From NCBI RefSeq assembly GCF_014396165.1, contig NZ_CP060715.1:2040001-2072000 (forward strand): a DNA stretch of 32,000 bases. The letters are read 5' to 3'. Position 1 is the first letter of the stretch. Each line of letters opens with the position of its first letter. Source of the stretch: Erysipelothrix inopinata. Lineage in GTDB: Bacteria > Bacillota_I > Bacilli_A > Erysipelotrichales > Erysipelotrichaceae. The notes below the pieces were generated by a model that was not told where the DNA came from, did not search any database, and saw nothing but the letters and a program-made list of their open reading frames with translations. Of this stretch, positions 9,911 to 31,200 are shown one piece after another. The position numbers were made by a program, and so were the translations under genes.

Positions 9911-10129
9911 TTTTATGACTCTAACCGATGGCTTTGAACTTGGTATTATTTTTACGCAATCCCATTATCTTCACAGACTAAGTTGTGAAAATATAGGCAT
10001 GATTAACTGTGAAATACAGCTTTGGGAGTGGGTTTGTTAAAAGTGTGTAAATTTGTGAATTTCGAGTTGAATTTATTATTGAAATATGAAATTATAGTCT
10101 TGTCCAAATTAAACACACAGGAGGGGACA

Positions 10130-11146: not shown

Positions 11147-11161
11147 TAGTATTCAGTTCTT

Positions 11162-11183
11162 AAGCGGGGTGACCCGCTTTTTT
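11162..11183 (+). terminator. Intra-operon stem-loop with T-run between phnD and phnC (partial terminator or attenuator)
   Basis: 7-bp GC-rich stem AAGCGGG / CCCGCTT with loop GTGA, followed by TTTTTT. It lies 16 nt after the phnD stop and 18 nt before the phnC ATG. Confidence 0.6.
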
Positions 11184-11200
11184 AAAGTAGGAGAGTTTTT

Positions 11201-11968
11201 ATGATTAAATTTAATAATGTTAGTAAAGTATATCCTAACGGTGTAAAAGCCTTGGATGGTGTTAATTTAGAAATTGAACAAGGTGAGTTTGTCGCAATCA
11301 TCGGCCTATCAGGTGCTGGTAAGTCTACATTACTTCGAAGCATTAATCAGATGCATCCAATCACTGGAGGAGAACTGATCGTAAATGGTCAAGATGTTTC
11401 TTCACTTAGCGGTAAATCACTTCGTAAGTTTCGTCGTCAAATTGGAATGGTATTTCAATCATTTAATCTTGTAAAGCGTACAACAGTTATTAAGAATGTT
11501 CTTACAGCACGTGTCGCGGAAATGCCTTGGTTCAAAAGTTTATTAGGCCTCTATTCAAAAGAAGATACACTTTCTGCTCTTGAGAGCTTGGATCAAGTCG
11601 GAATCCTCGATAAAGCATACAGTCGTGCAGACGAACTTAGTGGTGGTCAACAGCAACGTGTTGCTCTTGCAAGATGTTTGGCGCAGAAACCTCAAATTAT
11701 TCTTGCTGATGAACCAGTTGCTTCATTGGATCCAATTACAGCCCAACAAGTTATGGCAGACTTCGTGAAGATTAATGAGAAAACAAACATTACTGTTATC
11801 GTTAACATGCATCACGTTGATTTAGCACTAAATTATGCCAAACGTGTCATTGGTATCAAGGCAGGTCAAATTGTCTTTGATGGCCCCAGTTCTGAAGTAA
11901 ATGAAGAAGTATTGGAACTTGTGTATGGTCGTTCTCTCAATGATGATGAAATGATGGGAGTGAAGTAA
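11201..11968 (+). CDS. phnC: Phosphonate-type ABC transporter ATP-binding protein
   Basis: Walker A GLSGAGKSTLLR, signature LSGGQQQRVALARCL, Walker B ILADEPVASLDP. The overall PhnC-like N-terminus is IKFNNVSKVYPNGVKALDGV. Confidence 0.9.
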   Translation: MIKFNNVSKVYPNGVKALDGVNLEIEQGEFVAIIGLSGAGKSTLLRSINQMHPITGGELIVNGQDVSSLSGKSLRKFRRQIGMVFQSFNLVKRTTVIKNVLTARVAEMPWFKSLLGLYSKEDTLSALESLDQVGILDKAYSRADELSGGQQQRVALARCLAQKPQIILADEPVASLDPITAQQVMADFVKINEKTNITVIVNMHHVDLALNYAKRVIGIKAGQIVFDGPSSEVNEEVLELVYGRSLNDDEMMGVK

Positions 11969-11969
11969 G

Positions 11970-12791
11970 ATGTCCTTTCTTAAGTCGATACTCTATCCTA
12001 AAAGTATCACTTTAGATAATGGAAAGGTTGTGAAACCACCCATCAGAATGAATGTCATCATTTCAATCATTCTGATTATTCTAATTTATCTAAGTGCAAA
12101 AATTACAGGTTTTAACTTTTCAATGCTTATTCAAGGTGGGAGTGAATTCTTTAAATTCTTAACACGAATGATGCCACCCAACCTCGGGTTTGCTAAAGAC
12201 GTTATGAATCCAATGCTACAAACTTTCGCAATGTCATTTCTCGGTACATTGCTTGCAGCTATCTTTGCCCTTCCTGTGGCATACCTTTCTGCAACCAATA
12301 TGAATCAAAATACCGTTACTCGTACAATTATACGATTTATCATGAGTATTTTTAGAACGATTCCAGTTCTGATTATTGCCTTGATCATGACTTATATTTT
12401 TGGTTTGGGAACCTTTGCCGGAATGATAGCAATCTTCTTATTTACTTTTTCAATTGTTACCAAAATGACTTACGAACAAATTGAAATGGTAGATATGGGA
12501 CCCTTTGAAGCAAGTATTTCTACAGGTGCTTCGCGATTTCAATCATTTATTGCTTCTGTAATACCTCAAATTAGCGGTCTTTACCTTTCGACCATCCTCT
12601 ATAACTTGGAGATGAATATTCGTTCTGCCGCTGTTTTAGGGTATGTAGGTGCTGGTGGAATTGGTACTCTAATGAATCAAAGCATTGGATGGCGTCAATA
12701 TCAAAACCTTGCAACAATTCTACTTATCTTATTGGTAAGTGTCGTCTGCATTGAAGCTTTGAGTCGTCAAATTAGAAAGAGGTTATCGTAA
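11970..12791 (+). CDS. phnE: Phosphonate-type ABC transporter permease (PhnE family)
   Basis: 273-aa polytopic membrane protein with a BPD_transp_1 fold and a PhnE-type C-terminal motif (RSAAVLGYVGAGGIG). The ATG is 1 nt after the phnC stop. Confidence 0.9.
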   Translation: MSFLKSILYPKSITLDNGKVVKPPIRMNVIISIILIILIYLSAKITGFNFSMLIQGGSEFFKFLTRMMPPNLGFAKDVMNPMLQTFAMSFLGTLLAAIFALPVAYLSATNMNQNTVTRTIIRFIMSIFRTIPVLIIALIMTYIFGLGTFAGMIAIFLFTFSIVTKMTYEQIEMVDMGPFEASISTGASRFQSFIASVIPQISGLYLSTILYNLEMNIRSAAVLGYVGAGGIGTLMNQSIGWRQYQNLATILLILLVSVVCIEALSRQIRKRLS

Positions 12792-13594
12792 TGAATCCAA
12801 CAGTTCAAACGGTTTATGATAACCGTCCCAAAAAATACAAAAGAATCATTTTTATTTCTTTAATCGTAGTAGGTATTACCTTATTATCTGTTCCCTATGT
12901 TGATTATAATGGTATTGTTGAAAATGGAATGGATATTGTAAATAGTATTCTTATGGGAATACTCAAACCCAACTGGGAAGTACTCTTCACACTTTCAAAA
13001 GAAGGTGTTCCATATCTCGTATTCGAAACAGTAGCGATTGCATTCTTAGGAACCTTTGTAGGACTTGTCCTTTCAATTCCTATTGCATTTCTATCATCAG
13101 AGAATATTGTCTCTAAGAAATTTTCTTGGATTGGAACTTTCGTAATTACAGTAATCCGTACATTCCCACCTTTTGTTTATGGTCTTATGCTAATAAGAGT
13201 ATCTGGCCCTGGTGCCTTTACAGGTGTTCTTACTCTCGCGATTACTTCAATCGGAATGATATCTAAAATGTTTGTGGAAGTCATTGAAGATTTAGATCAA
13301 GGTATTATTGAATCTTTAGATGCTTCAGGATGTAACACCATTCAAAAAATCCGTTATGGTATAATTCCTCAGTTAATGGGAAACTTTGCTTCAATTTCTA
13401 TCTATCGATTTGAAATTAATGTTAAGAACGCATCAATTTTAGGCCTTGTTGGTGCTGGCGGTATTGGTGCTCCATTACTCTTCGCAATGTCTGGTTTTAG
13501 ATGGGCAGATGCTGGTGCATTACTTTGGGGTCTCATTATCTTAGTTGTTGTTGTTGAAGCATTGTCTTCACGCATCAGATCCAAATTATCATAG
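12791..13594 (+). CDS. phnE: Second PhnE-family ABC transporter permease
   Basis: Paralogous to the preceding gene (KNASILGLVGAGGIG). The start overlaps the upstream stop (TAATG). Confidence 0.9.
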   Translation: MNPTVQTVYDNRPKKYKRIIFISLIVVGITLLSVPYVDYNGIVENGMDIVNSILMGILKPNWEVLFTLSKEGVPYLVFETVAIAFLGTFVGLVLSIPIAFLSSENIVSKKFSWIGTFVITVIRTFPPFVYGLMLIRVSGPGAFTGVLTLAITSIGMISKMFVEVIEDLDQGIIESLDASGCNTIQKIRYGIIPQLMGNFASISIYRFEINVKNASILGLVGAGGIGAPLLFAMSGFRWADAGALLWGLIILVVVVEALSSRIRSKLS

Positions 13595-16310: not shown

Positions 16311-19300
16311 TTACGATTTTTTAACTTTAATAAATAGAAATCCTAGGAGTATAAATCCAATTCCTATTATATATATTCCACTTGTACTCATTCCGGTCCC
16401 AGGTAATTTACCATTAGGGTATTCAGTTTCTGGAACTTTACCATTATCTCGGACTTTGAGATTGTTCATAGCACTCTTTAAATTTGAATACATCAAATCA
16501 ACCATCTCTTGCGTTGTTTCTTCATTTATATTTTTAATAAAGTCATGTGCTTCTTTTCGAGCGGTTTCAAAAGGAATCCAAGTCAATTCTGTATAATAAT
16601 CTTTATGTTTTAAATCAGATTCCTGAATAAGTTGAATTAAAGAATTCAAATCTATTTGATCAACTTCATTTTGTTTTATTGTAACAATCCGAGTATTACT
16701 TGCTTTAGAATAATTACCAGCCGTATCTTCCGCAACTACCCAGTATTGATAGTTATGTTCTGAGCTAAGATTGGAATCGAGATAATAGAGATTTTCCGTC
16801 GACGCAATTTCGACACCATCGCGATATACATGATATAGCTTGATACCCATATTATCCTCTGATTTGAGCCATTCAATTTGTACACTACTTTGCGATACAA
16901 TATCTACCTTATCTATAACTGGTGCTGTGGGGGCTAGTGTATCTTTGACAGTTGGGGTGAACCAGTTCCCAGATACAACAATCATACTTAACAATCTTAA
17001 ATTATTTCCAAAATATACTTCATCTTGAGTATCTGCAGAAGCATTTAAATCCCACAGGTCATTTAACCATGTCTGATGATCTGCGTGCATCATTGCGCTC
17101 ACCATGAATGGCGCCGTAAAGGTTAAATCTTGCCAATCACCTACAACTTCTCCATTTAATGTAAATCCCGATTTAATTTCGTTTACATCATCACTTGTTG
17201 ATTCTCTTAGCCATCTATTCAGAGTTTCCAGTTGACTATATGCACGTTTTTCTCCTGTAACTAAATAATCAGTTGCTAGTCTCCATGGAGTTCGAGCTGA
17301 GTTGTAGTAATAATTTCCATCATTTTCAGATTCTAAAAATTCCGAAGGCGCAGGAATATGTTTTCCCTCATCTAAAACAATAAAATCCGGTAACAGACCT
17401 GTATCTGTACTATATTCTTTATAAATAGTTTCAGATAGTTCGTAGGTATTATTAATCACGTTATCCCAACGCACATCTCCACTCACTATTCTAAAATCTT
17501 TAAGATGTTGCATCATCCAATCAGATGGACGTGTTGCTCCAAGATACTTATCACTATTTGCCCAATCAGCAAGATTAAGGGTCCACCTTTCATGGTCTAC
17601 TTCGCTTTCCATAATAGCATCAATAACTTTTCTAGCTTCCGTTAAGTAATTAATATTACCCAAGCTTCCCCACTGTTCATGGGCAAGTATTAGTGAATAA
17701 GCGATATCCATATCACCATCAATTGCTGAATCAGCGCCATTGATATCTACAATAACTCCATCAACTAACCCTTGTTGCCAAGCCATTAGATTAGAGTTTA
17801 TTTCTGATGGATGTGCCTTAAAATATCTAAACATCGCATCATAATCAGATTGAGTATGATTATATTGATTTGCCATCATCGCTAATATTATCATTCCATA
17901 ACCATGAGCTTCCGAAACCGTAATTTCATTGTCCTCATAGTCATCGGGATTTCCGTCAGAATACCAAACATACTTCTGATCAATATTATTTGGATCTACT
18001 TTTAAATACTTTTGCTTCCACTCAGTGAATAGTCTTTGTACTGTCTGATCCATTTCTTCCTGACTAATATGATTTGGTCTAATTGAATCCGATACGTAGC
18101 GAGTATGCTGAGGAAAACTTCGTCCAATATGTCCTTCAAGAGTCATAATGATAACTTTATCTGATTTTTGAGATTCGATGTCCTCATCGTTCACTGCTGA
18201 TACCTCGTAATTATAATTGGTTTTCTGAAGCAGTCCTGAATCTCTAAAGCTCGTAGAACGCGAAATTCCAATGAAAACATTATCTCTATATATTTTATAA
18301 TACTTAATGCCTGTATCACTAATACTAGATTCCCAAGAAATTTCAACTTCATACTGACTTATTGCTTTTCCTATAACATTTTTAGGTGTCGTAGGAGGTT
18401 CATTTCCCTCTTGCTGTGAATTAATAATAATACTTGATACCTGTCCATTCGTACGGATTCCAACCGGTACGACATTGAACGAGTACTTAATATTCGGATT
18501 TATTTTATCAATTTTCAAATGAATATTATCTTCATCAGTCTCAATATACTGAGACCAGTGAGTTCCCATTTTATCGTTACTTTCATACACTCTATATCCA
18601 CGAACCGGAGCACCTTTATCTGGTTTACTCCAACTTAGTTCCAGCTCATCATTATTCGCGGTATAAGTAAGGTTAGAGATTTGATTAGGAGCTTCGTCTG
18701 TTCTGACAATTCCATATTTATCATATTCAACCAAACCATCACCAACCGTATTTGCTTTCCCCTCGTCCTCAACGGCTGCTGTATAAGAAGTCATTGTTAG
18801 GATGTTTTCACTAATTCCCATATCTGTAAACATTTTTTTAAATGGTTGTTCATCGATAGCAGCAAAGAAATCGTCATAAGGAATTGGTTTTCCATCTTCT
18901 CCAATTATTTCGACTGCATCCCAATTTTCATCCAAATAGTGTTGGTTATTTTTTGTATAAAATTTATTCCCCAATGCATTTGGCATTAAATAGACAGTTC
19001 CCTTTGGATTAATATAATTACCGTCTGAATCTTTCTCAATACTTTCGAATGGAATTACTTCATTTCCGAGCATTTGAAAAGATCTCATGTACATATGGTC
19101 ATGTGCTTCAAAAACCATATCTATAGCCAGCTCATCAAATACAGGAATAAGATGCTTTCGATAGAATTGAACGCGTTCATCTTCCCATTGAGCCGAGTTA
19201 TCGCCTGCTGCATAAGGGGACTTATGGAATGTTACAAACTTCCATTTCTTTTCTGACTTAGCTACTGTATGCCGCATCCAGTCAACTTGTGCCCTAAACT

Positions 19301-20510
19301 CTGAATCTTCCCAAGCTATATATTCGCCATTTTCAGCAAGACCACCTTCAAATTGAGAGTTAAAAACCATGAAAAGAGCATCTCCATATTCGTATGAGTA
19401 AACGGAACCATCATGAGTTCCCTCTACTACATTTCTTTCCAAGTTAAAGTGGTTATAAAAATTATTATTTTCAGTAGTAACATCCCCATCATAATCGTTT
19501 ACCTCGTGTCCTCCTAAAACAGGAACAAAAGGAACATTTAGAAGCGAATCTTCTGCGACACTTAACATATATTGCCAATGTGATTCTAAATCACCATTAT
19601 CTACAAGATCTCCCGCAAGAATTAAAAACTTAGGGTCGTCAATATGATTTCGTGCTTTTCTAAAAGTATCTGCCCATGGTTTAAAGTTTTCAAGAGATGA
19701 AGCTTGGGAATCTGCTCCTACAATAAAATGAAAGCTTGAGTTTTCTTCTGTATCAGTGGTGAAAGAACCGATTTTTGACCATTCAAAACCATTTCCCAGA
19801 CGGAATCGGTATTGTGTTCCAGGCTTTAAATCTAGAGCATCAACTTTATGAGAATAAAAAACATGCTTATTATCAGTTTTTCGATCATTTTCGTCAAGAT
19901 ACGTCTCTACTCTATCACTAATCCCTTTGTAAACTTGATATGAATCAAGAGGAAACTTCTCATCAATAACTTGAGACGCTTCTACTATTTGAACGATTGA
20001 TTCAGTATTTGAGTCAGTATACCACGCAAATCCCATTGATGTTTTCGGAGATTTTGCAAAGGTCATATTCATGAGTTTAGGAATAAAAGGTGAAACCTGT
20101 GTTTCGAACGACCAGATTACATCCCGCACTAATTTTTGATTATCCGTTCCCTCCAATGACTCCTTATTAATTCTAACTGTATACTCTTCTCCAAAATTCA
20201 ATGTTTCGTGATTGATTTTAATTTTGTTATTTTCAATTTCAAAAGTTATATTTGGGATATGTCCTTTATTTCCGATCATCGTGATATTATCTGATACTAA
20301 TTTTATATCATAATTAAATGTTGCTTCTATCTTTGTATCTTCCGATACTTTTTTTGCACCATTAACTGGAAGAACATTAAGATCGCGGATAGGCTCAGAA
20401 ATTTCTGAGTCATTGATTCGTAATCCTTCTATTTTAACTTCTTTAATTCGATTTGAACCATAACCTCCAATGTCTCCCCGCTCGTACTTACTGCAGTGTG
20501 TTTCTTCCAT
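16311..20510 (-). CDS. Body of an LPXTG-anchored multi-domain surface enzyme with no signal peptide in this frame. Domain order: Ig-like domain, purple-acid-phosphatase N-domain, calcineurin-like metallophosphoesterase, 2x FN3, glycoside hydrolase family 8, FN3, FIVAR-like helical domain, LPGTG anchor
   Basis: - Metallophosphoesterase motifs: GADSQ, GDLVDNGD, GGHE, FHKSPY, AHDHMY (about 19071-19736).
- GH8: catalytic-acid context TVSEAHGYGM and the family signature ADSAIDGDMDIAYSLILAHEQW (domain about 16956-18116).
- Three FN3-like modules with W..S and Y.Y.V patterns.
- The FIVAR-like segment reads YYTELTWIPFETARKEAHDFI ... TQEMVDLMYSNLKSAMNNL.
- The sortase signal LPGTG is at 16392-16406, followed by a TM helix and a KVKKS tail. 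Confidence 0.85.
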   Translation of the reverse strand: MEETHCSKYERGDIGGYGSNRIKEVKIEGLRINDSEISEPIRDLNVLPVNGAKKVSEDTKIEATFNYDIKLVSDNITMIGNKGHIPNITFEIENNKIKINHETLNFGEEYTVRINKESLEGTDNQKLVRDVIWSFETQVSPFIPKLMNMTFAKSPKTSMGFAWYTDSNTESIVQIVEASQVIDEKFPLDSYQVYKGISDRVETYLDENDRKTDNKHVFYSHKVDALDLKPGTQYRFRLGNGFEWSKIGSFTTDTEENSSFHFIVGADSQASSLENFKPWADTFRKARNHIDDPKFLILAGDLVDNGDLESHWQYMLSVAEDSLLNVPFVPVLGGHEVNDYDGDVTTENNNFYNHFNLERNVVEGTHDGSVYSYEYGDALFMVFNSQFEGGLAENGEYIAWEDSEFRAQVDWMRHTVAKSEKKWKFVTFHKSPYAAGDNSAQWEDERVQFYRKHLIPVFDELAIDMVFEAHDHMYMRSFQMLGNEVIPFESIEKDSDGNYINPKGTVYLMPNALGNKFYTKNNQHYLDENWDAVEIIGEDGKPIPYDDFFAAIDEQPFKKMFTDMGISENILTMTSYTAAVEDEGKANTVGDGLVEYDKYGIVRTDEAPNQISNLTYTANNDELELSWSKPDKGAPVRGYRVYESNDKMGTHWSQYIETDEDNIHLKIDKINPNIKYSFNVVPVGIRTNGQVSSIIINSQQEGNEPPTTPKNVIGKAISQYEVEISWESSISDTGIKYYKIYRDNVFIGISRSTSFRDSGLLQKTNYNYEVSAVNDEDIESQKSDKVIIMTLEGHIGRSFPQHTRYVSDSIRPNHISQEEMDQTVQRLFTEWKQKYLKVDPNNIDQKYVWYSDGNPDDYEDNEITVSEAHGYGMIILAMMANQYNHTQSDYDAMFRYFKAHPSEINSNLMAWQQGLVDGVIVDINGADSAIDGDMDIAYSLILAHEQWGSLGNINYLTEARKVIDAIMESEVDHERWTLNLADWANSDKYLGATRPSDWMMQHLKDFRIVSGDVRWDNVINNTYELSETIYKEYSTDTGLLPDFIVLDEGKHIPAPSEFLESENDGNYYYNSARTPWRLATDYLVTGEKRAYSQLETLNRWLRESTSDDVNEIKSGFTLNGEVVGDWQDLTFTAPFMVSAMMHADHQTWLNDLWDLNASADTQDEVYFGNNLRLLSMIVVSGNWFTPTVKDTLAPTAPVIDKVDIVSQSSVQIEWLKSEDNMGIKLYHVYRDGVEIASTENLYYLDSNLSSEHNYQYWVVAEDTAGNYSKASNTRIVTIKQNEVDQIDLNSLIQLIQESDLKHKDYYTELTWIPFETARKEAHDFIKNINEETTQEMVDLMYSNLKSAMNNLKVRDNGKVPETEYPNGKLPGTGMSTSGIYIIGIGFILLGFLFIKVKKS

Positions 20511-21025
20511 CGAATATAGACTAATGATTCATTATCGAAAATTGATGGCAACTCTTTCTGGTTCAATCTTGATTCATTTGTATATTTTTCTTTGCTCATT
20601 ACTAACGTTTCATCATCAATATTTTCCCAATTTGTACCATCTAAACTTGCCTGAATTTTAAAATCTTTAGGTCCTGATCCTGAAGAAGTTTGACTCGAAG
20701 ATAGTTTCAAATTTTTATATCCAAGTGTTGGAACAATCATTAACCAGTATTGTTCTACTTCTTCATCAGCACTCCAACCCCAATAGCTTAGAGTTCCTTG
20801 AGAATCTACACCTTCCAAATAAGGACCTCCCTTCGCTTCAAACGTCGCGGAGCTTCGGTATTGTCCATTTTGTGCTCGATAGACACCATGCTTGCTCTCT
20901 TCTTTAAAAGTAAACTCGGCAATTAAATCTGATTTTGCCTCATCTGCATGTGCAATCGGAATGCTTGCAACGCTTAAAGCTACAATCAACAATAAAACTC
21001 TCAATTTTTTGAGAATGTATTTCAT
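20429..21025 (-). CDS. Signal-peptide-bearing N-terminal module of the same surface protein, in a different reading frame (frameshifted 5' segment)
   Basis: - MKYILKKLRVLLLIVALSVASIPIAHADE is a Sec signal peptide behind RBS AGGAGGG.
- It is followed by a roughly 150-aa beta-rich module (GPKDFKIQASLDGTNWENI).
- The ORF overlaps the 16311-20510 ORF by 82 nt in another frame.
- Its last 15 codons look like out-of-frame read-through. Confidence 0.7.
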   Translation of the reverse strand: MKYILKKLRVLLLIVALSVASIPIAHADEAKSDLIAEFTFKEESKHGVYRAQNGQYRSSATFEAKGGPYLEGVDSQGTLSYWGWSADEEVEQYWLMIVPTLGYKNLKLSSSQTSSGSGPKDFKIQASLDGTNWENIDDETLVMSKEKYTNESRLNQKELPSIFDNESLVYIRWKKHTAVSTSGETLEVMVQIELKKLK

Positions 21026-21107
21026 AATTCCCTCCTACGGACTGATAGCCCTTTCTTCACTAGCCTATCAAACCTTAACTCTTTCAACAATCTTCTCAAC
21101 CATCGTT

Positions 21108-21119
21108 TGAACTAGTACA
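21108..21119. promoter_or_regulatory. Operator-like site TGAACTAGTACA (11 of 12 match to the TGTACTAGTACA palindrome) upstream of the surface-enzyme gene
   Basis: Located 83 nt upstream of the ATG at 21025 and immediately downstream of the MocR-gene terminator. It shares ACTAGTACA with the perfect palindrome at 22533-22544. Confidence 0.45.
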
Positions 21120-21123
21120 AAAA

Positions 21124-21144
21124 AACATCACCTAAAGTGATGTT
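21124..21144 (-). terminator. Rho-independent terminator of the MocR-type regulator gene
   Basis: 8-bp stem AACATCAC / GTGATGTT with a 5-nt loop that includes the stop codon, followed on the minus strand by TTTTTTT. Confidence 0.7.
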
Positions 21145-22484
21145 AAATAAACCTCATTAATAATTTCATAGAGTAGTGTCAGCGCTTTAGAAACCTGTTT
21201 AATCTTAATTCGAGACATTGAGATACGTATCGAGTTGTCATAATCGTCTTTATTGTAAAATGCCATTCTATTAGAAGAAACAATAATCGAGTTTTTTTCA
21301 CATTCACGAATCAGTTGTTCAACATCGATTACTTTTGATAATCTAATTGTTGAGTAGTATCCACAGTCCCCACCTATATGTTCTGCTATTTTTGAGTCCC
21401 ATTTTCGTGTAACTTCACGAGCAATTTTAAGTTTTTGTGTTAAACTATCTGACACTGATTGAGCATTTGTGACTAAAATATCTGATCTTACTGCTGCCTC
21501 TAATGTCGCTTGCGATACTAAATCCGGCATATGATATGATAAAAAATAGTTTTCATCTGCTGCTTCGGAAAACGAATCCGTTAAATCATCTGGGACTACA
21601 ACATACCCAATTCTAATATATGGAAATAACTTAGAATATGATTTCATATAAATACAATTTTTAAAATCAGAAAAATAATATAGTGGCGAATATTTCGGAA
21701 TTGCATAAGAATCATTGAAGTAATCATCCTCAACAATATACACTTCATATTGATGTGCAAGTCGAACAATTTCTTTTCGTTGTGAATGACTCAGAGCAGT
21801 TCCTAATGGATTGTGATTTCGAGGGACAATATAGAAAAACTTTATAGATTCTTCTTTAAATATACGTTCTAACTCAACTAAGTCAATACCCTCTTCGTTG
21901 CGGTTAATTGTAACAACGTCTAATCCGAGTGAATGCATCATTTCATTACAAAATGTATATGTTGGAGATTCTAAAAGAACTCGTGTATTACCGTTTGGAA
22001 ATTCCATTCTTGATAATACAGATACGGTTTGTATTACGCCTTGAGTTAAGAAAAAATTCTCGGTTTTGCAGTAGATATCATAATTTTCAAGATGATCAAC
22101 CATCAGTTCATTTAAGGATGACATTCCACGAACATCTGATTCCAACGAATTATTTCTATATAAATCAACAGCAATATTTAAAACATGTTTTGCTTCGATA
22201 ATAGAAAAAGTATCAACGGTAGGATTCCCTGTTCCTAAATCCATTATATTTCCATTCTCTTCTTCATCCCTTAATAAATCGTCCGCAACGTAGAATCCGC
22301 TATTTGCTTTGGAGTACACTATATGTTCGTAGCGCAATATATCAAATGCTTTTATCACTGTTCCCTTACTACAATTATACTCTTTCGAAAGAAATCGTAT
22401 TGATTCAAATCGCTCTCCAGGTAAAATTTCTCCATTAAGTATCTTATTTTTTAAGTCGTGTGCTATTTTCTCATACTTTAACAT
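21132..22484 (-). CDS. MocR-subfamily GntR transcriptional regulator (N-terminal wHTH fused to a fold-type I aminotransferase-like PLP domain)
   Basis: - GntR HTH: KYEKIAHDLKNKILNGEILPGERFESIRFLSKEYNCSKGTVIKAFDILRYEHIVYSKANSGFYV.
- The aminotransferase-fold part retains the PLP-binding landmarks: NHNPLG, VEDDY, and SYSK with K285 (21630-21632), followed by IRIGYVV. Confidence 0.9.
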   Translation of the reverse strand: MLKYEKIAHDLKNKILNGEILPGERFESIRFLSKEYNCSKGTVIKAFDILRYEHIVYSKANSGFYVADDLLRDEEENGNIMDLGTGNPTVDTFSIIEAKHVLNIAVDLYRNNSLESDVRGMSSLNELMVDHLENYDIYCKTENFFLTQGVIQTVSVLSRMEFPNGNTRVLLESPTYTFCNEMMHSLGLDVVTINRNEEGIDLVELERIFKEESIKFFYIVPRNHNPLGTALSHSQRKEIVRLAHQYEVYIVEDDYFNDSYAIPKYSPLYYFSDFKNCIYMKSYSKLFPYIRIGYVVVPDDLTDSFSEAADENYFLSYHMPDLVSQATLEAAVRSDILVTNAQSVSDSLTQKLKIAREVTRKWDSKIAEHIGGDCGYYSTIRLSKVIDVEQLIRECEKNSIIVSSNRMAFYNKDDYDNSIRISMSRIKIKQVSKALTLLYEIINEVYLTSL

Positions 22485-22532: not shown

Positions 22533-22544
22533 TGTACTAGTACA
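22533..22544. promoter_or_regulatory. Perfect 12-bp palindrome TGTACTAGTACA in the divergent MocR / PTS IIC intergenic region (candidate operator)
   Basis: All 6 positions are self-complementary. The site lies 49 nt upstream of the regulator ATG and overlaps the -35 position of a minus-strand TACAAT box (22512-22517). It is 92 nt upstream of the IIC ATG. Confidence 0.55.
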
Positions 22545-22635
22545 AACGCTTGTTGATGCAATTGCTTGTAAGTTGCTTTCACGTTAACTTATAGGTGTAA
22601 GGGCTAACAGCTCATTAGAGGAGGAGAAATATTAC

Positions 22636-23961
22636 ATGACAAATCTCATGGAGAAATTTGCATCATGGCTTGAAGAACACTTCTTGCCTATAGCAAGTGC
22701 AATTGGTAACCAGAGACATTTAGTAGCATTACGTGATGGTTTTATTGCAACAATGCCAGTAAGTATGTCTGGTGCATTAGTTGTTATGTTTAAAGAAGTA
22801 ATTTTTACTTCTGAATCGTTATTCGGAACTATGCTTAACAAACTAAGCTTTTATGCCGAAAATATTCAACCCGTGCTTGACCGAACACTTGTACCGGTAT
22901 TGGAGCAAATGTGGTGGGGAACACTTGCTCTTGGTATTATATTTAGTGTGTTTACGATTGCTTATAAACTTGCTGAGCATTATAAACAAGATGCACTATC
23001 TGCTGGTGTTCTCGCAGTGGTATCTTATTTAATACTATTACCACAAGCAGTCGAAGGCGGAGAATGGGGTACAATTTCTTGGACATCATTCAACTCGGAA
23101 GCTATATTTACCGGATTAATTGTTGCCATGATTTCTACAGAAATCTTTAACTGGGTAGTAAACAAGGGCTGGACGATAAAAATGCCAGACAAAGTACCAC
23201 CAGCAGTATCAAAAGCATTCTCTGCTATGATTCCAGCATTCTTTGTATTAACCTTCTTTGGTATCGTTTCAGTATGTTTCCAAGAAGGTCTTGGAATACC
23301 AATGCAACAGTTCATCAATAATGCTATTCAGGTTCCACTAACAAAATTAGGTCAGTCACCATTTACATTTATATTGCTAGTATTTATTGCCCAAATATTA
23401 TGGTTCTTTGGTCTTCATGGAATCACAATTATCGGTCCTGTTTTAGACACAATGTATTCACCAGCTCTTGCAGCAAATGCAGAAGCTATTATGATTAAAG
23501 GAGTCGCTCCTACAAATGCAATCACACGTAACATGTTAGACTTATATGGTATGCATGGCGGCAGTGGTGCAACACTAGCTCTGATTATTGCTATATTCTT
23601 AGTATCAAAAAGAACCGAATACAAATCATTGGCTAAGATGTCTTTAATGCCAGGGGTTTTCCAAATTAATGAACCAATTATTTATGGATTGCCAATTGTA
23701 TTAAATCCAATTTTAGCAATTCCATTTATTATTATTCCACCAATAACAGTATTTATTGGTTGGTTATTTACTGCTGTAATACCGTTTGCCGGTTTCGTTT
23801 ACATTGATCCACCTTGGGTCGTTCCACCTGTACTTAATGCATTCCTTGCAACAGGAGGAGATATAAAAGCTGCAATTCTAGCATTCGCCACTTTAGTTAT
23901 AGCAATACTAATTTACATGCCATTTATTATGATTGCTAACAAAATGGAAGATTCTATCTAA
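22636..23961 (+). CDS. PTS sugar transporter subunit IIC, lactose/cellobiose/chitobiose (Lac) family
   Basis: 441-aa polytopic protein. The N-terminus LPIASAIGNQRHLVALRDGFIATMP and the later FFGLHG and NEPIIYGLPIVLNP are hallmark motifs of CelB/LicC/ChbC-type IIC. RBS GAGGAGGAG lies upstream. Confidence 0.93.
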   Translation: MTNLMEKFASWLEEHFLPIASAIGNQRHLVALRDGFIATMPVSMSGALVVMFKEVIFTSESLFGTMLNKLSFYAENIQPVLDRTLVPVLEQMWWGTLALGIIFSVFTIAYKLAEHYKQDALSAGVLAVVSYLILLPQAVEGGEWGTISWTSFNSEAIFTGLIVAMISTEIFNWVVNKGWTIKMPDKVPPAVSKAFSAMIPAFFVLTFFGIVSVCFQEGLGIPMQQFINNAIQVPLTKLGQSPFTFILLVFIAQILWFFGLHGITIIGPVLDTMYSPALAANAEAIMIKGVAPTNAITRNMLDLYGMHGGSGATLALIIAIFLVSKRTEYKSLAKMSLMPGVFQINEPIIYGLPIVLNPILAIPFIIIPPITVFIGWLFTAVIPFAGFVYIDPPWVVPPVLNAFLATGGDIKAAILAFATLVIAILIYMPFIMIANKMEDSI

Positions 23962-23963
23962 TG

Positions 23964-23993
23964 AAAACCCATCTCGAATGAGATGGGTTTTTT
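23964..23993. terminator. Bidirectional rho-independent terminator between PTS IIC (+) and the GH4 gene (-)
   Basis: Perfect 12-bp stem AAAACCCATCTC / GAGATGGGTTTT with loop GAAT. The T-run lies on the + strand and the A-tract gives a T-run on the - strand. Confidence 0.85.
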
Positions 23994-24009: not shown

Positions 24010-25326
24010 TTAGTTATGAAACTGTGGTAAGAAATCTTTATGTGCTTCCATCAATTCTGATACTACTCGATTTGCCAATGCATCACTGGGGCATAATGGA
24101 TTCGAACTCAATGCAGTAACAGCTAAATCATAATCACCTGTAACCGCAGCTTCACAAACCATTCTTTCAAATGATTTGATTGTTTGAATTGTACCATTAA
24201 TCTTGGGATTTAATTCCCCAACTGCAATCGGTTTTGGACCATCTGAAGTGATGACACACGCTACCTCAATTGCACTATCAAGTGGCAAGTTAGTGATTGC
24301 CCCATTGTTACGTACATTTACATATTGAATGTCACAGGAATTATTATGAATTGAATGAATCAAACTACAGGCTGCATCAGAGTAATGTGCCCCGCCACGT
24401 TGTTCTAGTTGTTTTGGTTTAACTTTAAGAGATTGATCTTTATAAAGTTCAAAAAGTTCATCTTCAAGTTTTTTTACAACTTCCCCTCTTACTGTGCCTG
24501 TTTTAAACTCTTCGAGTTGAGTATTGAGTTGTTCTTCAGTGAAGTAATAGTAGTTATGGTAAGGACAAGGTATCGCACCAAGACCTCTTAAAAATTCTGG
24601 CGAATAAGAGAGTGCTTCAAAGTTTTTCATAGCCAGCGCTTTTTCACTCTCTTCAGTATATTTATCAATCACTTTATCTAGAATAGATGCCCCTTTATGA
24701 TAGACATCAGTAACGAATACATGATGGTTTACACCACTAAGCTCCATTGAAATTTCCTCAGGATCTAATTCTAACATATCTGCGAAAGTGTGTTTCATAT
24801 CAAAAGGAACGTTACATAAACCAATGACCTTTTTAAAATTTGTATACCTCAAGACTGCTTCCGTAACCATACCTGCAGGATTCGTAAAATTAATCAACCA
24901 TGCATCAGGACAAAGCTCCTCCATGTCTTTAACAATTTCCAAAATGACAGGAATAGTTCTAAATGCTTTGAACATTCCCCCCGCCCCATTTGTTTCTTGA
25001 CCAATCATACCATGTGATATTGGAATTCTCTCATCTAGTATTCTTGCTTGAAGCTGCCCCACTCGCATTTGCGTTGTTACATAGTCTGCATCTTTTAAAG
25101 CTTCTTTTCGGTCATAGCTTAAGTGAATTGTCATATTTACACCAGCTTCTTCAACCATCCGCTTTGCTAACGCTCCTACAATCTCTAATTTTTCCCTACC
25201 CTCTTCTATATCAACCAGCCACAATTCACTAATTGGTAACTCTCTATGTCTTAAAATGAATCCCTCAACCAATTCTGGAGTATATGAACTACCTCCACCA
25301 ATAGTAACTACTTTAATTTTTTTCAT
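24010..25326 (-). CDS. GH4 6-phospho-beta-glucosidase (LicH/CelF/ChbF-like, NAD+/Mn2+-dependent)
   Basis: It is near-colinear with LicH-type enzymes (KVVTIGGGSSYTPELVEGFI, GQETNGAGG, NFTNPAGMVTEA, GLCNVP, GVNHHVF, RGGAHYSDAA). The start is set at MKKIKVV (25326) behind GGAGGAAAAACA, immediately after the ROK stop codon. Confidence 0.95.
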   Translation of the reverse strand: MKKIKVVTIGGGSSYTPELVEGFILRHRELPISELWLVDIEEGREKLEIVGALAKRMVEEAGVNMTIHLSYDRKEALKDADYVTTQMRVGQLQARILDERIPISHGMIGQETNGAGGMFKAFRTIPVILEIVKDMEELCPDAWLINFTNPAGMVTEAVLRYTNFKKVIGLCNVPFDMKHTFADMLELDPEEISMELSGVNHHVFVTDVYHKGASILDKVIDKYTEESEKALAMKNFEALSYSPEFLRGLGAIPCPYHNYYYFTEEQLNTQLEEFKTGTVRGEVVKKLEDELFELYKDQSLKVKPKQLEQRGGAHYSDAACSLIHSIHNNSCDIQYVNVRNNGAITNLPLDSAIEVACVITSDGPKPIAVGELNPKINGTIQTIKSFERMVCEAAVTGDYDLAVTALSSNPLCPSDALANRVVSELMEAHKDFLPQFHN

Positions 25327-26213
25327 TGTTTTTCCTCCGTTTTCATACAATAATAGGCTGCACCAATCTTGCCAGCATCATTATGATGTTTACAAACATC
25401 AATATTCCATATTTTATAATATGGGGTCATTTTCTGAAGTGCACTTTTAACATCTTGAATTAGTTTAGATGATGCACTGACACCACCACCCAATAAAATT
25501 GTATCGGGATCTATTGAAAACGCGATGTTGTAAATTCCTGTACTGAGACAACGTATCCATTCATCGTATATTTGGAGCAATGGTTCGTTTTCTGAGCTTA
25601 ATAGTTCAAATACATTCCTCCCTGAAAATTCGCCATCGGAAATACCAAATAATTTAGATACTTTATTCACCAATGCCTCAGTTGCACTATTCTCGCTCAT
25701 AATTTCATAGTCAGTATAATTACTAAATTCTTTTGTTATCATATATCCAAACTCGCCTGCCATAAAATTACTCCCATGATATAATTGGTTGTTGATGATT
25801 ATTCCTCCACCAATTCCACTTCCAATTGTGATACAAACTAAATTGCTACTTCCTACACCATTACCCGTCCAGTGTTCAGCTAAGGTGGCACAGTTCGCAT
25901 CATTTTCGAGAACAGTACGGATTCCAGTACGTTGTTCAATGATTTCTCCTAGATATTTATTTGATAGAGTTGGAATTGCTCCTCCCTCTATAATTATTCC
26001 AGAATCAGTATTTACAGCTCCCGGAATACTTAATCCTATTCCGTCTAAATCTGAATATTTGGATACTATTGTATCAATAATGTCTAGTATTTCTTCAAAG
26101 TTATCTCGAACACTTTTAATCGGTCTCGGGTCGTGAACGAGTGAATTTCCAAGTTCATCATACAGCCCATGTTTGATTTCAGTTCCACCGATATCAATTC
26201 CTAAATATCTCAT
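25323..26213 (-). CDS. ROK-family sugar kinase (no N-terminal HTH, so a kinase rather than a repressor)
   Basis: The protein begins directly with the ATP-binding motif MRYLGIDIGGTEIK, and has ROK glycine-rich motifs (LENDANCATLAE, GSGIGGGIII) and GEFGY. It is 296 aa. Confidence 0.9.
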   Translation of the reverse strand: MRYLGIDIGGTEIKHGLYDELGNSLVHDPRPIKSVRDNFEEILDIIDTIVSKYSDLDGIGLSIPGAVNTDSGIIIEGGAIPTLSNKYLGEIIEQRTGIRTVLENDANCATLAEHWTGNGVGSSNLVCITIGSGIGGGIIINNQLYHGSNFMAGEFGYMITKEFSNYTDYEIMSENSATEALVNKVSKLFGISDGEFSGRNVFELLSSENEPLLQIYDEWIRCLSTGIYNIAFSIDPDTILLGGGVSASSKLIQDVKSALQKMTPYYKIWNIDVCKHHNDAGKIGAAYYCMKTEEKQ

Positions 26214-26282
26214 TATTCTATCACCTTTCCACTTTTATGATACATCCTCAAATCTGTCTCTACAACAGAACCAAATCATCAA

Positions 26283-26294
26283 TGTACCAGTACA
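26283..26294. promoter_or_regulatory. Operator-like site TGTACCAGTACA (TGTAC-NN-GTACA) upstream of the ROK-GH4 operon
   Basis: Both 5-bp arms are identical to the palindrome at 22533-22544. It lies 70 nt upstream of the ROK ATG, upstream of a TTGTAG-17-TATCAT promoter candidate on the minus strand. Confidence 0.5.
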
Positions 26295-26369: not shown

Positions 26370-26747
26370 TTAATCTACTTTCACGATTGCAATATTTCGA
26401 ATACTCTCCCAAGCAATTTCAGTTTCTCCAAGATACAAGTATTCATCATCAGCAATACCTTCAAATTTTCCGACAATACTTTCCAAAAGATTTTGGTTAT
26501 CATCTCTTATATTTAACTGTATTGAGATGGTTTTTGATTTCAAAAATGCATATTGTAGTACTTCATCAATTTCTAAACGACTCATAATCGGTAATTCTTT
26601 AACTTGATTTAAAGCTTCATCTTGTCCTTCTGTAATCACTTTAGTTAATTCCGCCAGTGAAAAAGCAGTTCCCCATTTTAGTCCAAAAGGACGATCGTGA
26701 TAATCATTGTAATCAACGAATACTTTTTTTGTTCTTTTTCGTTCCAT
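26370..26747 (-). CDS. YolD-like protein (accessory partner of Y-family polymerases)
   Basis: It is a small protein directly downstream of a UvrX/YqjW-type polymerase. The central segment DRPFGLKWGTAFSLAEL resembles the YolD-family W..F motif. The start is chosen at MERKRTKK (26747) behind GTGAGGAAG. The ORF is open to 26801, so the start is uncertain. Confidence 0.65.
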   Translation of the reverse strand: MERKRTKKVFVDYNDYHDRPFGLKWGTAFSLAELTKVITEGQDEALNQVKELPIMSRLEIDEVLQYAFLKSKTISIQLNIRDDNQNLLESIVGKFEGIADDEYLYLGETEIAWESIRNIAIVKVD

Positions 26748-28101
26748 GATTTGCTTCCTCACTTCCGATTCCTTCCAAACCACCCGCATGTCCTCCGACA
26801 AGAGAGCTTCGAGCTATTGCACGACCCCCATCCGTAAGACTGCTAGCATAAACCATTGTTTTAAAACCATACTTATTTCTCACAAGATCAACTGCTGCAT
26901 CGAGTTTTTTTTCTTTGTCTTTCAATTCAACAGGTTCAAACAAATTAATCTGTTCTTGGCGACAATGATCTAATTTTGTACAATTCACTGCTATATTTCT
27001 CACAATTTGGATATCATAATACTTATCAAAAATAGACAGCAATGTTTCCGCAATGCGATGACTATTATTGGTTGCTTCGATATTCACTTGTTTATGAAAT
27101 CCTGTTTTACCCTCATCGTCAACATAACTTAGAGAGTAACCTACCCATAGACTAACACATCGTGTTTGAACATTTTCTTTCCGTAAACGTGTGGCGACTT
27201 GATCAGCCATCTCACGAATTACCACTTCGATTTGTTTTTTATCATAATAATCACGATTCAAGACTTGTGAGTTCCCAATTGTTTTAGACTTAGGAGTGTA
27301 GTGCTCACCAAGAAATGTACGATCTATTCCCCATGCATGTGCATAAAGTTGTGTACCCAGAATACCCATTTCTTTTTTTAGCATATAGTAATCTGCTTGC
27401 GCTAAATCATATACAGAATGTATACCCAATTTTTCCAATCTCTTTGCTGTTCTTTTTCCAATACCCCAAATATCAGTTATTTCCTTCACAGGCCACAATT
27501 TAGTACAAACATCTTCATATCGCCACTCAGCTTTCATATCTTTATTATGCTTAGCTTCAATGTCCAGAGCTAATTTTGCTAATAGTGGGTTATCACCAAT
27601 ACCGACAGTCGTATAGATCCCTGTTTCCTCATATACAGTGATTTGAATCAACTTTGCAAGTTCATATGGGGTACTACAATTAAAATAAGACAACGAATCC
27701 GTTACATCTAAAAATGTTTCATCAACCGAATATGTCGCAACATTTTCATCATCAACAAATCTTCGATATATATTATTAATTTGTTTATGAATTTTCATAT
27801 AAAGGTGCATTCGTGGCGGTGCAATAAAAAGATCATCCGGATAGGGAAATGGTAAATCTCGAGCTCTACTTACGTTGCTAATATTGTATGCTTTCTTCGC
27901 TTCAGGGCTTGAAGCAAGAATGAGACCACTTCCTCGTTCTTCAGGACTATCACTTGGATAACTCATAACGACCAACTTTGCCTTCAAAGGATTTAAATTT
28001 AAGGCTACTGCTTCGCATGAAGCATAGAAACTCTTACAATCAATGCACAAGATATCTCGTGAGGGCTCTTTTTGATAATCAAACTCAAGTCTTTCTTCCA
28101 T
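26713..28101 (-). CDS. Y-family (translesion) DNA polymerase, UvrX/YqjW/ImpB-like
   Basis: ILCIDCKSFYASCEAV (catalytic Asp in IDCKSFY), YSVDETFLDVT (DE catalytic pair), a helix-hairpin-helix ITDIWGIGKRTAKRLEKLGI and a little-finger domain. RBS AAGGAGGTGG lies upstream. Confidence 0.9.
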   Translation of the reverse strand: MEERLEFDYQKEPSRDILCIDCKSFYASCEAVALNLNPLKAKLVVMSYPSDSPEERGSGLILASSPEAKKAYNISNVSRARDLPFPYPDDLFIAPPRMHLYMKIHKQINNIYRRFVDDENVATYSVDETFLDVTDSLSYFNCSTPYELAKLIQITVYEETGIYTTVGIGDNPLLAKLALDIEAKHNKDMKAEWRYEDVCTKLWPVKEITDIWGIGKRTAKRLEKLGIHSVYDLAQADYYMLKKEMGILGTQLYAHAWGIDRTFLGEHYTPKSKTIGNSQVLNRDYYDKKQIEVVIREMADQVATRLRKENVQTRCVSLWVGYSLSYVDDEGKTGFHKQVNIEATNNSHRIAETLLSIFDKYYDIQIVRNIAVNCTKLDHCRQEQINLFEPVELKDKEKKLDAAVDLVRNKYGFKTMVYASSLTDGGRAIARSSLVGGHAGGLEGIGSEEANHGTKKNKKSIR

Positions 28102-28239: not shown

Positions 28240-31200
28240 CTATGCTTCCTCTTCTTCTTTCTTACGGCTTTTTGATCTTAATTTCAAGCCTCCTATGATT
28301 GAAGCGAGTCCTGCAAGTACCAAGGTCCCATCACTTGCCACTCCAGTACCTGGAAGTGTTGGTTTTGGTTTCTCTGGATTTGGTTTTTCTGGATCAACTG
28401 TTTCTTTCACTGTATTGGTAATTGTAAATCCATCAATTGCGGATTCATAATTCGCTACAGCTTCTTCGTCGACTGTATAGATGATTTTCGCTCCAGCTTT
28501 AAACTCTGGTAATGATTTGAATGTATAGTTCCATGTATCATTTCCCTTAGTCCATTCTGGTTTCACATCTACCTTCTCGCCATTCGCATAAAGATTTACG
28601 GTAATGCTTTCTGGTCGTTTGTTCTCTTTATTCGAATTATCGTCCCATATTTTTTGACCTTCAAGATCAATAAGGGATACTTCGTGTGTATTTACGAGAT
28701 TCAATCCATTTACTACTGAGCTATAGCCTGCCACAGCTTCTTCTGTAATGGTGTATACAAGTTTCTCTCCATTTTCATATTCTGGAAGTTCTCCAAATGT
28801 ATAACTCCATGTGTTTTCTGCTTTGGTCCATTGTGCTTTCACATCTTGAGCTTCTCCATTTTTGAAGAGTGTCACTGTGATTGCTTCTGGACGAAGTCCA
28901 TCTTGATTGGATTCATCAACCCATTCTTTTTGTCCTTTTATTTCAACTACAGATGGTTTGTGAGTGTTGGTAATACTGTATCCTTCGATTCCCTTAACAT
29001 AACCAGCTACTTCTGTTTCATCTACTGTATATGTTATTTTTTCTCCAGCTTTAAATTCTGGTTGGTTTTCAAAGACATAATGCCATACATCACCTTCTGT
29101 TTGAGTCCAAACTGGTTTCACATCCACTTTTTCGCCATTTGCATAAAGTGCTACTTCCACAGCTTCTGGGCGGATACCATCTTGGTTCTTATGATCATCC
29201 CATGTCTTCGTTCCTTCAATATTGATTAATGAAACTTCATGAGTATTCACAAGATTGTAATCTGTTATTTTTGCGGTATAACCATCAACACCAAGCTCTT
29301 CAATCACGTAATTAATGATTTCTTTATTTGCATACTTAGGTAGGTTCGCAAATTTGTAACTCCATGTATTACCATTCTTAATCCATTCTGGTTTTACTTC
29401 GAGTTTCTTACCATTCGCAATTAACTTAACGACAATATTTTCTGGTCGGATACCATCTTGGTTATCATTATCATTCCATACTTTCGTTCCGGTAATTGTT
29501 CTAACTTCAGTTGCTCGGGAGTTTGTGATATTGAGGCCTTCAATCTTAGTTGTATAGCCTACAACGTCATCTTCTTTAACTGTATATTCAATCAGTTCGC
29601 CACCTTTATACTCAGGTTGATCTGCGAATACATAGTTCCAAACATCTTCATCTGTTTGACTCCAAACTGCATCGGTATCTACTTTTTCACCATTTGCGTA
29701 AAGTGTTACTACAATTGTCTCTGGTCGTTTTCCGTCTTGATCCGAGGAATCCTTCCATGTTTTTGTTCCTTCGACATTAATCTTACTTGGTGTATGACTG
29801 TTTGTGATATTGAGTCCTTGAATATCTGTTGTATAGTGCTCGACAGCTTCTTCAGTTACGGTATATTCAATATCCACACCATTTTCTTTTACATCAAGAT
29901 TCGCAAATTCATAGGTCCAAGTATTTTCTGCTTTGGTCCATGTTGGTTCTGCATTTACTTTTTCACCATTAGCGTAAAGGGTAATCTTGATTTCTTCAGG
30001 TCTGAATCCTGCGATATTACTTGCATCATCCCATGTCTTAACGCCGGTTACCACTTTCGTATCAGCTTTATGAGTATTTGTGATATCTAAGCCTGTAATC
30101 TTAGGTGTATACCCTGGCACTGTATCTTCAGTCACAGTATAGGTAATCAATTGGCCACCTTTGTATTCAGGTTGTCCTGCAAAGGTATAGATCCATGAGT
30201 GTTCACCTTTAACCCATGTTGGTTCTGCCGTTACTTCTTCGCCATTTGCATGGAGTGTAATTTTGATTTCTTCAGGTCGAATACCATCTTGGTTCTTATT
30301 ATCGTCCCATGTCTTCGTACCTGTCACATCAATCTTACTTGGTGTATGACTGTTTGTGATATTGAGTCCTTGAATATCTGTTGTATAGTGCTCGACAGCT
30401 TCTTCAGTTACGGTATATTCAATATCGACACCATTTTCTTTCACTTCAAGATTCGCAAATTCATAGGTCCAAGTATTTTCAGCTTTGGTCCATGTTGGTT
30501 CTGCGTTTACTTTTTCACCATTAGCGTAAAGGGTAATCTCAATTTCTGCTGGTCTGAATCCTGCGATATTACTTGCATCATCCCATGTCTTAATGCCGGT
30601 TACCACTTTCGTATCAGCTTTATGACTGTTTGTGATATCTAAGCCTGTAATCTTAGGTGTGTATCCTGGTACTGTATCTTCAGTCACTGTATAAGTGATC
30701 AATTGGCCACCTTTGAATTCAGGTTGTCCTGCAAAGGTATAGCTCCATGAGTGTTCACCTTTAACCCATGTAGGTTCTGCCGTTACTTCTTCGCCATTTG
30801 CATAGAGTGTAATTTTGATTTCTTCAGGTCGGATACCATCTTGGTTCTTATTATCGTCCCATGTCTTCGTACCTATCACATCAATCTTACTTGGTGTGTG
30901 ACTGTTTGTAATATTGAGTCCTTGAATATCTGTAGTGTAGTGCTCGACAGCTTCTTCAGTTACGGTATATTCAATATCGACACCATTTTCTTTCACTTCA
31001 AGATTCGCAAATTCATAGGTCCAAGTATTTTCAGCTTTGGTCCATGAAGGTTCTGCGTTTACTTTTTCACCATTAGCGTAAAGGGTAATCTCAATTTCTT
31101 CGGGTCTGAATCCTGCGATATTGCTTGCATCATCCCATGTCTTAACCCCTGTTACGGATCGTGTATCAGCCTTATGACTGTTTGTGATATCTAAACCTGT

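Follow-up and report, generated by a model that had tools for sequence, protein, structure and literature searches.

A MocR-type regulator of a predicted phosphotransferase and phospho-beta-glycosidase regulon in Erysipelothrix inopinata, with an amino sugar as candidate effector

The regulators of the MocR subfamily that have been characterised act on the metabolism of vitamin B6, GABA, taurine or ectoine, and for most of the subfamily no effector is known. The namesake is a putative rhizopine-utilisation regulator, a precedent that the original prediction for the locus described here overlooked in its framing. Divergent activation together with autorepression is the usual pattern in the subfamily (PMC5320631). 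The nearest described relatives belong to the YcxD group, of which B. subtilis YcxD itself (BSU03560) is uncharacterised (PMC6522883). In the supplement of Suvorova and Rodionov (2016; PMC5320631), C. beijerinckii Cbei_4035 is placed in this group with CelF (GH4, COG1486) as its single target and the other group members are assigned RhaT/EamA exporters; a sugar regulon is not taken up in the main text of that paper. The regulator analysed here and Cbei_4035 are probably orthologues, as strain HUN142 has the same mocR–GH4 pair (L013). The searchable literature, outside which most subscription papers lie, yielded no characterisation of sugar-linked MocR proteins, of a MocR regulator with cellobiose/PTS or chitobiose genes, or of Cbei_4035-4037. 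The regulon has been predicted once, in a table, and as a clade is so far undescribed.

We analysed a 32,000-nucleotide stretch of E. inopinata DNA (assembly GCF_014396165.1, contig NZ_CP060715.1, positions 2,040,001 to 2,072,000), referred to below as the window. A MocR-type regulator (21132-22484, minus strand) is divergent from a PTS IIC gene, a ROK–GH4 gene pair is convergent with the IIC gene, and an LPGTG-anchored GH8 protein is encoded downstream of mocR. Profile and structure-sequence matches agreed with the original prediction on the identity of these neighbours (Lac/Cel IIC, GH4, ROK and a GH8 surface protein). That prediction went on to propose that the regulator senses an amino sugar. 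For its first part, control of the sugar PTS/GH4 locus, conserved adjacency and operators at three promoters now provide strong sequence evidence, while the part concerning the effector stays plausible. We propose, with a probability of about one half, that this MocR protein is dedicated to a small regulon for beta-linked oligosaccharides, which it activates while repressing its own gene, and that it senses a glucosamine-bearing phospho-sugar through PLP.

The regulator and its clade

The regulator is encoded by an intact 450-amino-acid reading frame with the MocR/GabR-subfamily architecture, an N-terminal GntR winged helix–turn–helix (residues 3-66) fused to a class I aminotransferase-like domain (Aminotran_1_2, residues 79-435; Pfam). 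The PLP landmarks claimed for it earlier are all in place, namely NHNPLG (223-228), VEDDY (251-255) and SYSK (282-285, including K285), as are R291 and R420. The Schiff-base lysine K285 is accompanied by the PLP-contact residues D253, Y176, Y255, S282, S284 and R291, and position 150 is valine rather than serine or threonine; in a comparison of 66 sequences this phosphate-binding Ser/Thr position is Ile/Val, K285 and R420 are present in 100% of the sequences and Y255, D253, R291 and S282 are nearly invariant. Residues K285, R420, Y255, D253 and R291 correspond to GabR K312, R430, Y281, D279 and R319, R420 being taken as the equivalent of R430 by position. An AlphaFold model of the protein (pLDDT 90) found its best fold matches in GabR (Foldseek E 3e-30) and PdxR; the roles of the PLP-anchor residues of GabR have been described (PMC11669113). 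None of the named MocR equivalogs in NCBIfam reached its curated cut-off with the window protein (bits/cut-off: PdxR 202/320, EhuR 127/480, rhizopine MocR 123/650, YczR 106/487, GabR 92/600, PtsJ 64/573), and its closest named relatives are Erysipelothrix proteins. A homodimer formed through the PLP domain is predicted with a score of 0.90 against 0.00 for the best control (20 of 30 true pairs and 1 of 23 monomers pass; contact agreement across runs at least 94%, pLDDT at least 91), a score that may reflect the expected resemblance to solved dimers.

In a tree that did not include BSU03560 and Cbei_4035, the sugar-linked MocR proteins formed a clade (support 100) that is sister to YcxD-like MocRs. 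These sisters have the same palindromic operator, but their genes adjoin EamA, MATE or enzyme genes, and in none of 10 sister loci viewed was a GH4, GH1, PTS or ROK gene directly beside mocR. Regulation of RhaT/EamA exporters, the trait of the YcxD group, is replaced in the window by GH8, IIC and ROK–GH4 targets. The clade is distinguished by G86-N87, loss of a conserved tyrosine near 116, F256 and Y377, and it is marked by a short tyrosine-rich insertion with Y313 and Y317 (aspartate in 89% of the sisters). Nine of 15 clade-specific positions fall in the interface of the predicted dimer, the region that forms the active site in fold-type-I proteins. The pattern is consistent with a new, aromatic-rich ligand site at this interface, which would suit a sugar and names none. 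For one YcxD-like sister regulator, that of Ca. Clostridium helianthi, a single contig carries five or more sites of full geometry (L103 4475; L104 6187-12848; L107 4386), which precede genes that by sequence appearance resemble KDPG-type aldolase, aminotransferase, serC, phosphatidylserine decarboxylase and ABC exporter genes, a putative larger regulon.

Conservation of the gene neighbourhood was surveyed in 80 GTDB loci chosen by protein similarity alone (36-85% identity) which, with the window, gave 81 loci from Erysipelotrichia, Clostridia, Enterococcaceae and Negativicutes. A glycosidase (GH4/GH1), PTS or ROK gene directly adjoins mocR in 56 of the 81, despite many gene orders, with 36/40 in clade A, which holds the window, and 20/41 in clade B. 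The original prediction had set conserved adjacency in related genomes against chance juxtaposition peculiar to one genome; the linkage spans four classes and is far from chance. GH4 genes occur within 10 kb in 45 of the loci, Lac-family IIC genes in 28, GH1 in 10 and ChbG in 8, and C. paraputrificum and other Erysipelothrix also have the IIC–ROK–GH4 core. Eight of 19 ROK neighbours were rejected as orthologues on account of their distance (20-32% identity). The distribution of mocR is patchy (8 of 27 same-genus genomes). Clade B is often paired with GH1 or MFS exporters, and several of its members have no sugar neighbours. A clade-B subgroup (L043, L044, L047, L050, L053, L059, L073) has lost its sugar neighbours and adjoins thiC-like or adhE genes; C. 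paraputrificum carries both a clade-A copy of mocR and a copy from this subgroup.

Operators and promoters

All three neighbouring units, the surface GH8 gene, the PTS IIC gene and the ROK–GH4 pair, are preceded by a palindrome placed exactly 17 bp before a predicted -35 element, and after each site come 17 nt, a -35 beginning with TTG, a further 17 nt and a -10 of the form TA...T. In the mocR/IIC divergon the palindrome TGTAC-N2-GTACA (22533-22544, plus strand) lies upstream of a predicted non-consensus sigma-A promoter for IIC (22562-22590, plus; -35 TTGCTT, -10 TAACTT), positioned from the conserved spacing, and overlaps the likely mocR -35 region. A second predicted operator (26283-26294, minus strand) serves the putative ROK–GH4 promoter (26237-26265, minus; -35 TTGTAG, -10 TATCAT). 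The third, with one mismatch (21108-21119, minus) and kept in loci L007 and L184, precedes the predicted promoter of the GH8 surface protein (21062-21090, minus; -35 TTGTTG, -10 TAGGCT), and a terminator-like hairpin at the end of mocR (21124-21144, minus) separates mocR from this unit. Exact intergenic copies of the palindrome number only two in the 2.2-Mb genome, at 22533 and 26283. The pattern count in the window (3 against 0.01) was obtained post hoc and its independent support comes from other genomes: the 81 loci contain 68 intergenic palindrome sites, where 60 permuted palindromes gave a median of 7.5. Of 47 target-side sites in these loci, 44 have TTG at exactly +17 nt and 46 are followed by a -10-like box.

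The conserved 17-bp spacing to the -35 suggests that the regulator acts as an activator, and a palindrome centred at about -58.5 before weak, non-consensus promoters would have the geometry expected of an activator site. On the mocR side the palindrome overlaps or follows the likely mocR promoter, so autorepression is expected. Binding at the three promoters is very probably regulatory and, with somewhat less assurance, probably activating; that the MocR regulon for PTS beta-glycoside catabolism is conserved and real, and probably activating, we regard as highly likely. A generic promoter scan did no better than chance and failed to pick up these weak promoters.

One could argue that MocR is a bystander and that the sugar genes are under another regulator. 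The same palindrome is used by YcxD-like paralogues in other genomes, so the site alone cannot identify its regulator, and two close GH4 orthologues were found without the MocR gene. Set against this, the window genome has no close MocR paralogue able to use the site (the next match is 22% identical), the linkage outlasts many gene rearrangements in four classes, and in Enterococcaceae the operator and the helix–turn–helix drift together; a bystander role is therefore very improbable.

The regulon appears to be small. No operator was found at nagA/nagB or at the GH18 chitinase gene in the window genome, which does encode a GH18 enzyme. A motif scan of 50 genomes for a wider regulon gave match counts close to those of a reversed-pattern control; the additional true sites were mostly those of YcxD-like paralogues or stood before GH1 and transporter genes, and in none of 20 regions examined did a site of conserved geometry directly precede a chitinase or nag gene.

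Substrate and candidate effector

The IIC gene (22636-23961, plus strand) encodes an orphan Lac/Cel/Chb-family protein that scores above the TIGR00410 cut-off. IIA and IIB are absent from the locus and are encoded elsewhere in the genome, which has at least 12 Lac-family IIC genes against only 2 IIA and 3 IIB. The orphan IICs of this genome may draw on the orphan IIA/IIB pair at 1299458-1300749. Comparison of the IIC pocket with that of ChbC gave no substrate discrimination. A likely bidirectional terminator hairpin (23964-23991), read from the sequence and unflagged in the scan, lies between the convergent IIC and GH4 genes. The GH4 gene (24010-25326, minus) encodes a 6-phospho-beta-glycosidase of the ChbF/LicH type with about 610 bits to 5c3m/1s6y (6-phospho-beta-glucosidase), and the closest solved GH4 enzymes are Geobacillus 6-phospho-beta-glucosidases. 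Its most likely start codon is an ATG at 25326 that shares bases with the stop codon of ROK, a correction to the earlier assignment. The ROK sugar kinase (25323-26213, minus) is closest among named families to the beta-glucoside kinase BglK, its best NCBIfam match, and to NanK, both below cut-off. The window genome also has a solitary ROK at 1508446, with about 65% identity to the L007 orthologue of the locus kinase. The region immediately preceding the ROK promoter contains a DNA polymerase IV/UmuC-like gene and a small overlapping ORF (26370-28101), in an order also seen in L007. Elsewhere in Bacilli-class genomes (L153, L160, L165, L168, L175, L179, L183) a GH4 gene recurs in an RpiR–AnmK–BadFG–GH4 operon, tied to anhydro-MurNAc recycling genes and often followed by a protein of about 1300-1800 amino acids.

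The amino-sugar proposal originally leaned on the GH8 surface protein (16311-21025, minus), which proved a weak basis for it. The gene is broken into two frames near 20477 by a one-base deletion in a G run, judged against an intact 1571-amino-acid copy in a 96.7%-identical relative, and the frameshift could stem either from the assembly or from a lesion in this strain. The 5' frame (20429-21025) encodes a signal peptide and a domain with a sub-threshold F5/8-type C match, and the 3' frame (16311-20510) encodes Big_5, purple-acid-phosphatase/metallophosphoesterase, fn3 and GH8 (about 16980-17945) domains and the LPGTG anchor. The N-terminal domain was considered as a chitosan-binding CBM32 and this was left unsupported (sub-threshold Pfam match; Atlas 0.87 with 31% of members). 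The combination of a purple-acid-phosphatase-type metallophosphoesterase with GH8 in one sortase-anchored protein is unusual and was seen only here and in L184 and L007. The GH8 domain scores higher with the Paenibacillus glucanase 5xd0 (386 bits) than with the chitosanase 1v5c (269 bits). Aligned to both, the domain shows the catalytic acid Glu together with the Glu/Asn pair that marks the chitosanase/lichenase subgroup, residues that both enzyme types share. The GH8 group to which it belongs acts on chitosan as well as on beta-glucan (PMC9705894). A close relative of the GH8 chitosanase ChoK (K17) cuts chitosan and beta-glucan equally (PMC9705894, Table 1), and GH8 is linked to mocR in only 2 of the 81 loci and present in only 6 of 26 genomes searched. 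Two further features of the window are the 3' end of a 2981-amino-acid Cna_B-repeat surface protein (28240-32000 and beyond; at least 13 repeats in the window) and a phosphonate-type ABC transporter operon (10022-13594) divergent from a LacI regulator.

Better, if indirect, support for an amino sugar comes from the ChbG and GH170 genes of regulated operons and from the chemistry of ChbF. In Clostridium, Erysipelothrix and Oscillospiraceae the regulated operon itself includes ChbG (8 of 40 clade-A loci have ChbG and 5 of 40 GH170 near mocR), an IIC–GH170 unit with GH170 in place of GH4 lies under a variant operator in Enterococcaceae, and in C. neonatale GH4 heads a NagA–PTS–GH170–NagB cluster. 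E. coli ChbF cleaves glycosides of GlcN-6-P after ChbG action, both GH170 enzymes that have been studied serve amino-sugar disaccharides (PMC12791066), and the ChbG product is the chb inducer (PMC9402603). In the GH4 tree, the group with ChbF and most MocR-linked GH4s (support 87) has amino-sugar neighbours in 15 of 18 control loci against 3 of 17 in the other group, although kin among these control loci are not independent. The GH18 enzyme encoded in the window genome is also in keeping with an amino sugar. Cleavage of chitosan by GH8 and deacetylation of chitobiose phosphate by ChbG would both lead to a GlcN-6-P glycoside, and the alternative gene sets could be understood in this way.

We propose that a MocR dimer binds TGTAC-N2-GTACA about 58-59 bp upstream of the three weak sigma-A promoters and covers its own promoter. 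The surface GH8 enzyme would free oligomers from chitosan or beta-glucan, a route that in other lineages would be replaced by deacetylation of chitobiose phosphate by ChbG, and the Lac-family IIC, with IIA and IIB borrowed from elsewhere, would import and phosphorylate the oligomer. GH4 would then split it into GlcN-6-P and a free sugar, which the ROK kinase would phosphorylate. The free C2 amine of GlcN-6-P or its glycoside could displace K285 and join PLP as an external aldimine within a Tyr-rich pocket between the subunits, leading to activation; a primary amine is required for such an aldimine (PMC8739950). The aldimine step at K285 has roughly even odds. Against the proposal count the missing enrichment of amino-sugar genes near mocR, the weak GH8 link, the beta-glucoside affinities of GH4 and ROK, the clade-B loci that pair with GH1 or exporters or have lost sugar neighbours, the lack of operators at nagA/nagB and the GH18 gene, the change at position 150 and the use of the palindrome by YcxD-like paralogues. 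That a widespread Bacillota clade has turned an amino-acid pocket into a covalent sensor of GlcN-6-P or a GlcN-6-P glycoside, through which PLP-dependent activators control the use of chitin/chitosan oligomers in anaerobes of gut and soil, is a tentative extension with a little less than an even chance; the searchable literature yielded no description of cofactor-based sugar sensing by a PLP aldimine.

Another explanation is that the substrates are cellobiose or beta-glucan oligomers and that an effector such as cellobiose-6-P is bound non-covalently in the aromatic pocket, PLP being structural or permissive. The closest relatives of the GH8, GH4 and ROK proteins, as given above, would all fit this, and GH1 takes the place of GH4 in about 10 clade-B loci. 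Amino-sugar neighbours were not enriched (13/40 in clade A and 0/41 in clade B, against 18/35 non-MocR control GH4 loci), and DUF3284, found in three loci, is ambiguous, as it serves chitobiose and cellodextrin systems alike (PMC12791066). Against it, K285 and R420 are invariant, characterised MocR-type inducers work via a primary amine or PLP is itself the effector (PMC8739950), and ChbG and GH170 of the regulated operons have no role in cellobiose use. We consider this explanation rather unlikely.

Less likely still is that vitamin B6 status or an amine-bearing aglycone is sensed, with the PTS and phospho-beta-glucosidase scavenging pyridoxine-5'-beta-glucoside or a similar plant glucoside and the clade-B exporters expelling the aglycone. 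This would suit the many loci that consist of only mocR and one phospho-beta-glucosidase, the operators at MFS and AEC transporters in C. polyendosporum, the control of exporters by sister regulators and the lack of a pdxST match in the window genome. It is weakened as the sites upstream of pdxS have another motif and another geometry and as the presence of pdxS varies, the regulator being found with and without it (15 of 44 genomes). Furthermore, the recurring neighbours included no recognisable pdxK or pdxU, and a secreted polysaccharide hydrolase, ChbG and GH170 fit poorly. Among the pdxS sites, that before pdxST in C. zeae was rejected as a MocR target on finding a different, PdxR-type motif; the motif TGTAT-N2-ATACA-TTTG, conserved some 100 bp before pdxS in most of the Clostridium genomes examined (L123-L135), is probably the clostridial PdxR site.

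An amino-sugar effector is the best single guess, ahead of both alternatives, and stands at about an even chance. A gene switch from a vitamin-B6-binding family that normally senses amino acids appears, in many Firmicutes of gut and soil, to turn on genes for taking up and degrading sugars, possibly in response to an amino sugar derived from chitin or chitosan, and the operator, the three-promoter regulon, a short list of ligands and the pocket signature (Y313/Y317, G86-N87, Y377) make the effector testable by one UV-vis titration. If amino-sugar sensing is true, PLP chemistry extends to sugar sensing, many PTS IIC and GH4 genes that are orphans in Erysipelotrichia and Clostridia of the gut could be given substrates, and deacetylated chito-oligosaccharides might be measured with a biosensor built on the regulator; if it is false, a new type of MocR regulon is still defined.

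Comparison with described systems

The YcxD group comes nearest, YcxD-like proteins forming the sister clade with the same palindrome and spacing, but its other listed members are assigned RhaT/EamA exporters as targets, and the sugar clade stands apart (support 100) with a remodelled pocket. B. subtilis GabR is alike in architecture, fold, PLP anchors and the logic of divergon activation with autorepression, whereas its identity to the window MocR is only about 19%, it binds direct repeats, it senses GABA, and its F250 is Asn225 in the window protein. S. meliloti MocR, EnuR/EhuR, PdxR and PtsJ belong to the same subfamily, and two of them offer parallels, MocR being tied to an amino-cyclitol pathway and EnuR sensing an amine made inside the cell. 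However, their NCBIfam models score well below cut-off with the window protein and none has PTS or phospho-glycosidase targets; PtsJ, despite its name, is a regulator of B6 salvage.

Among sugar operons, E. coli chbBCARFG and L. paracasei chbRCDE similarly join a Lac-family PTS to GH4 (with ChbG) or to GH170, and the E. coli inducer is mono-deacetylated chitobiose-phosphate. Operons of this type unite IIA, IIB, IIC and GH4 with ChbG or GH170 in one locus, whereas the window locus is without IIA, IIB and ChbG and adds ROK and GH8. Their regulators also differ, as ChbR of L. paracasei is GntR-type without PLP and the E. coli chb regulator is AraC-type, likewise without PLP. The Streptomyces csnR-K chitosan operon is alike in its chitosanase, oligomer transporter, GH4 enzyme and sugar kinase, and unlike in that it is controlled by a ROK-family repressor and relies on an ABC transporter.
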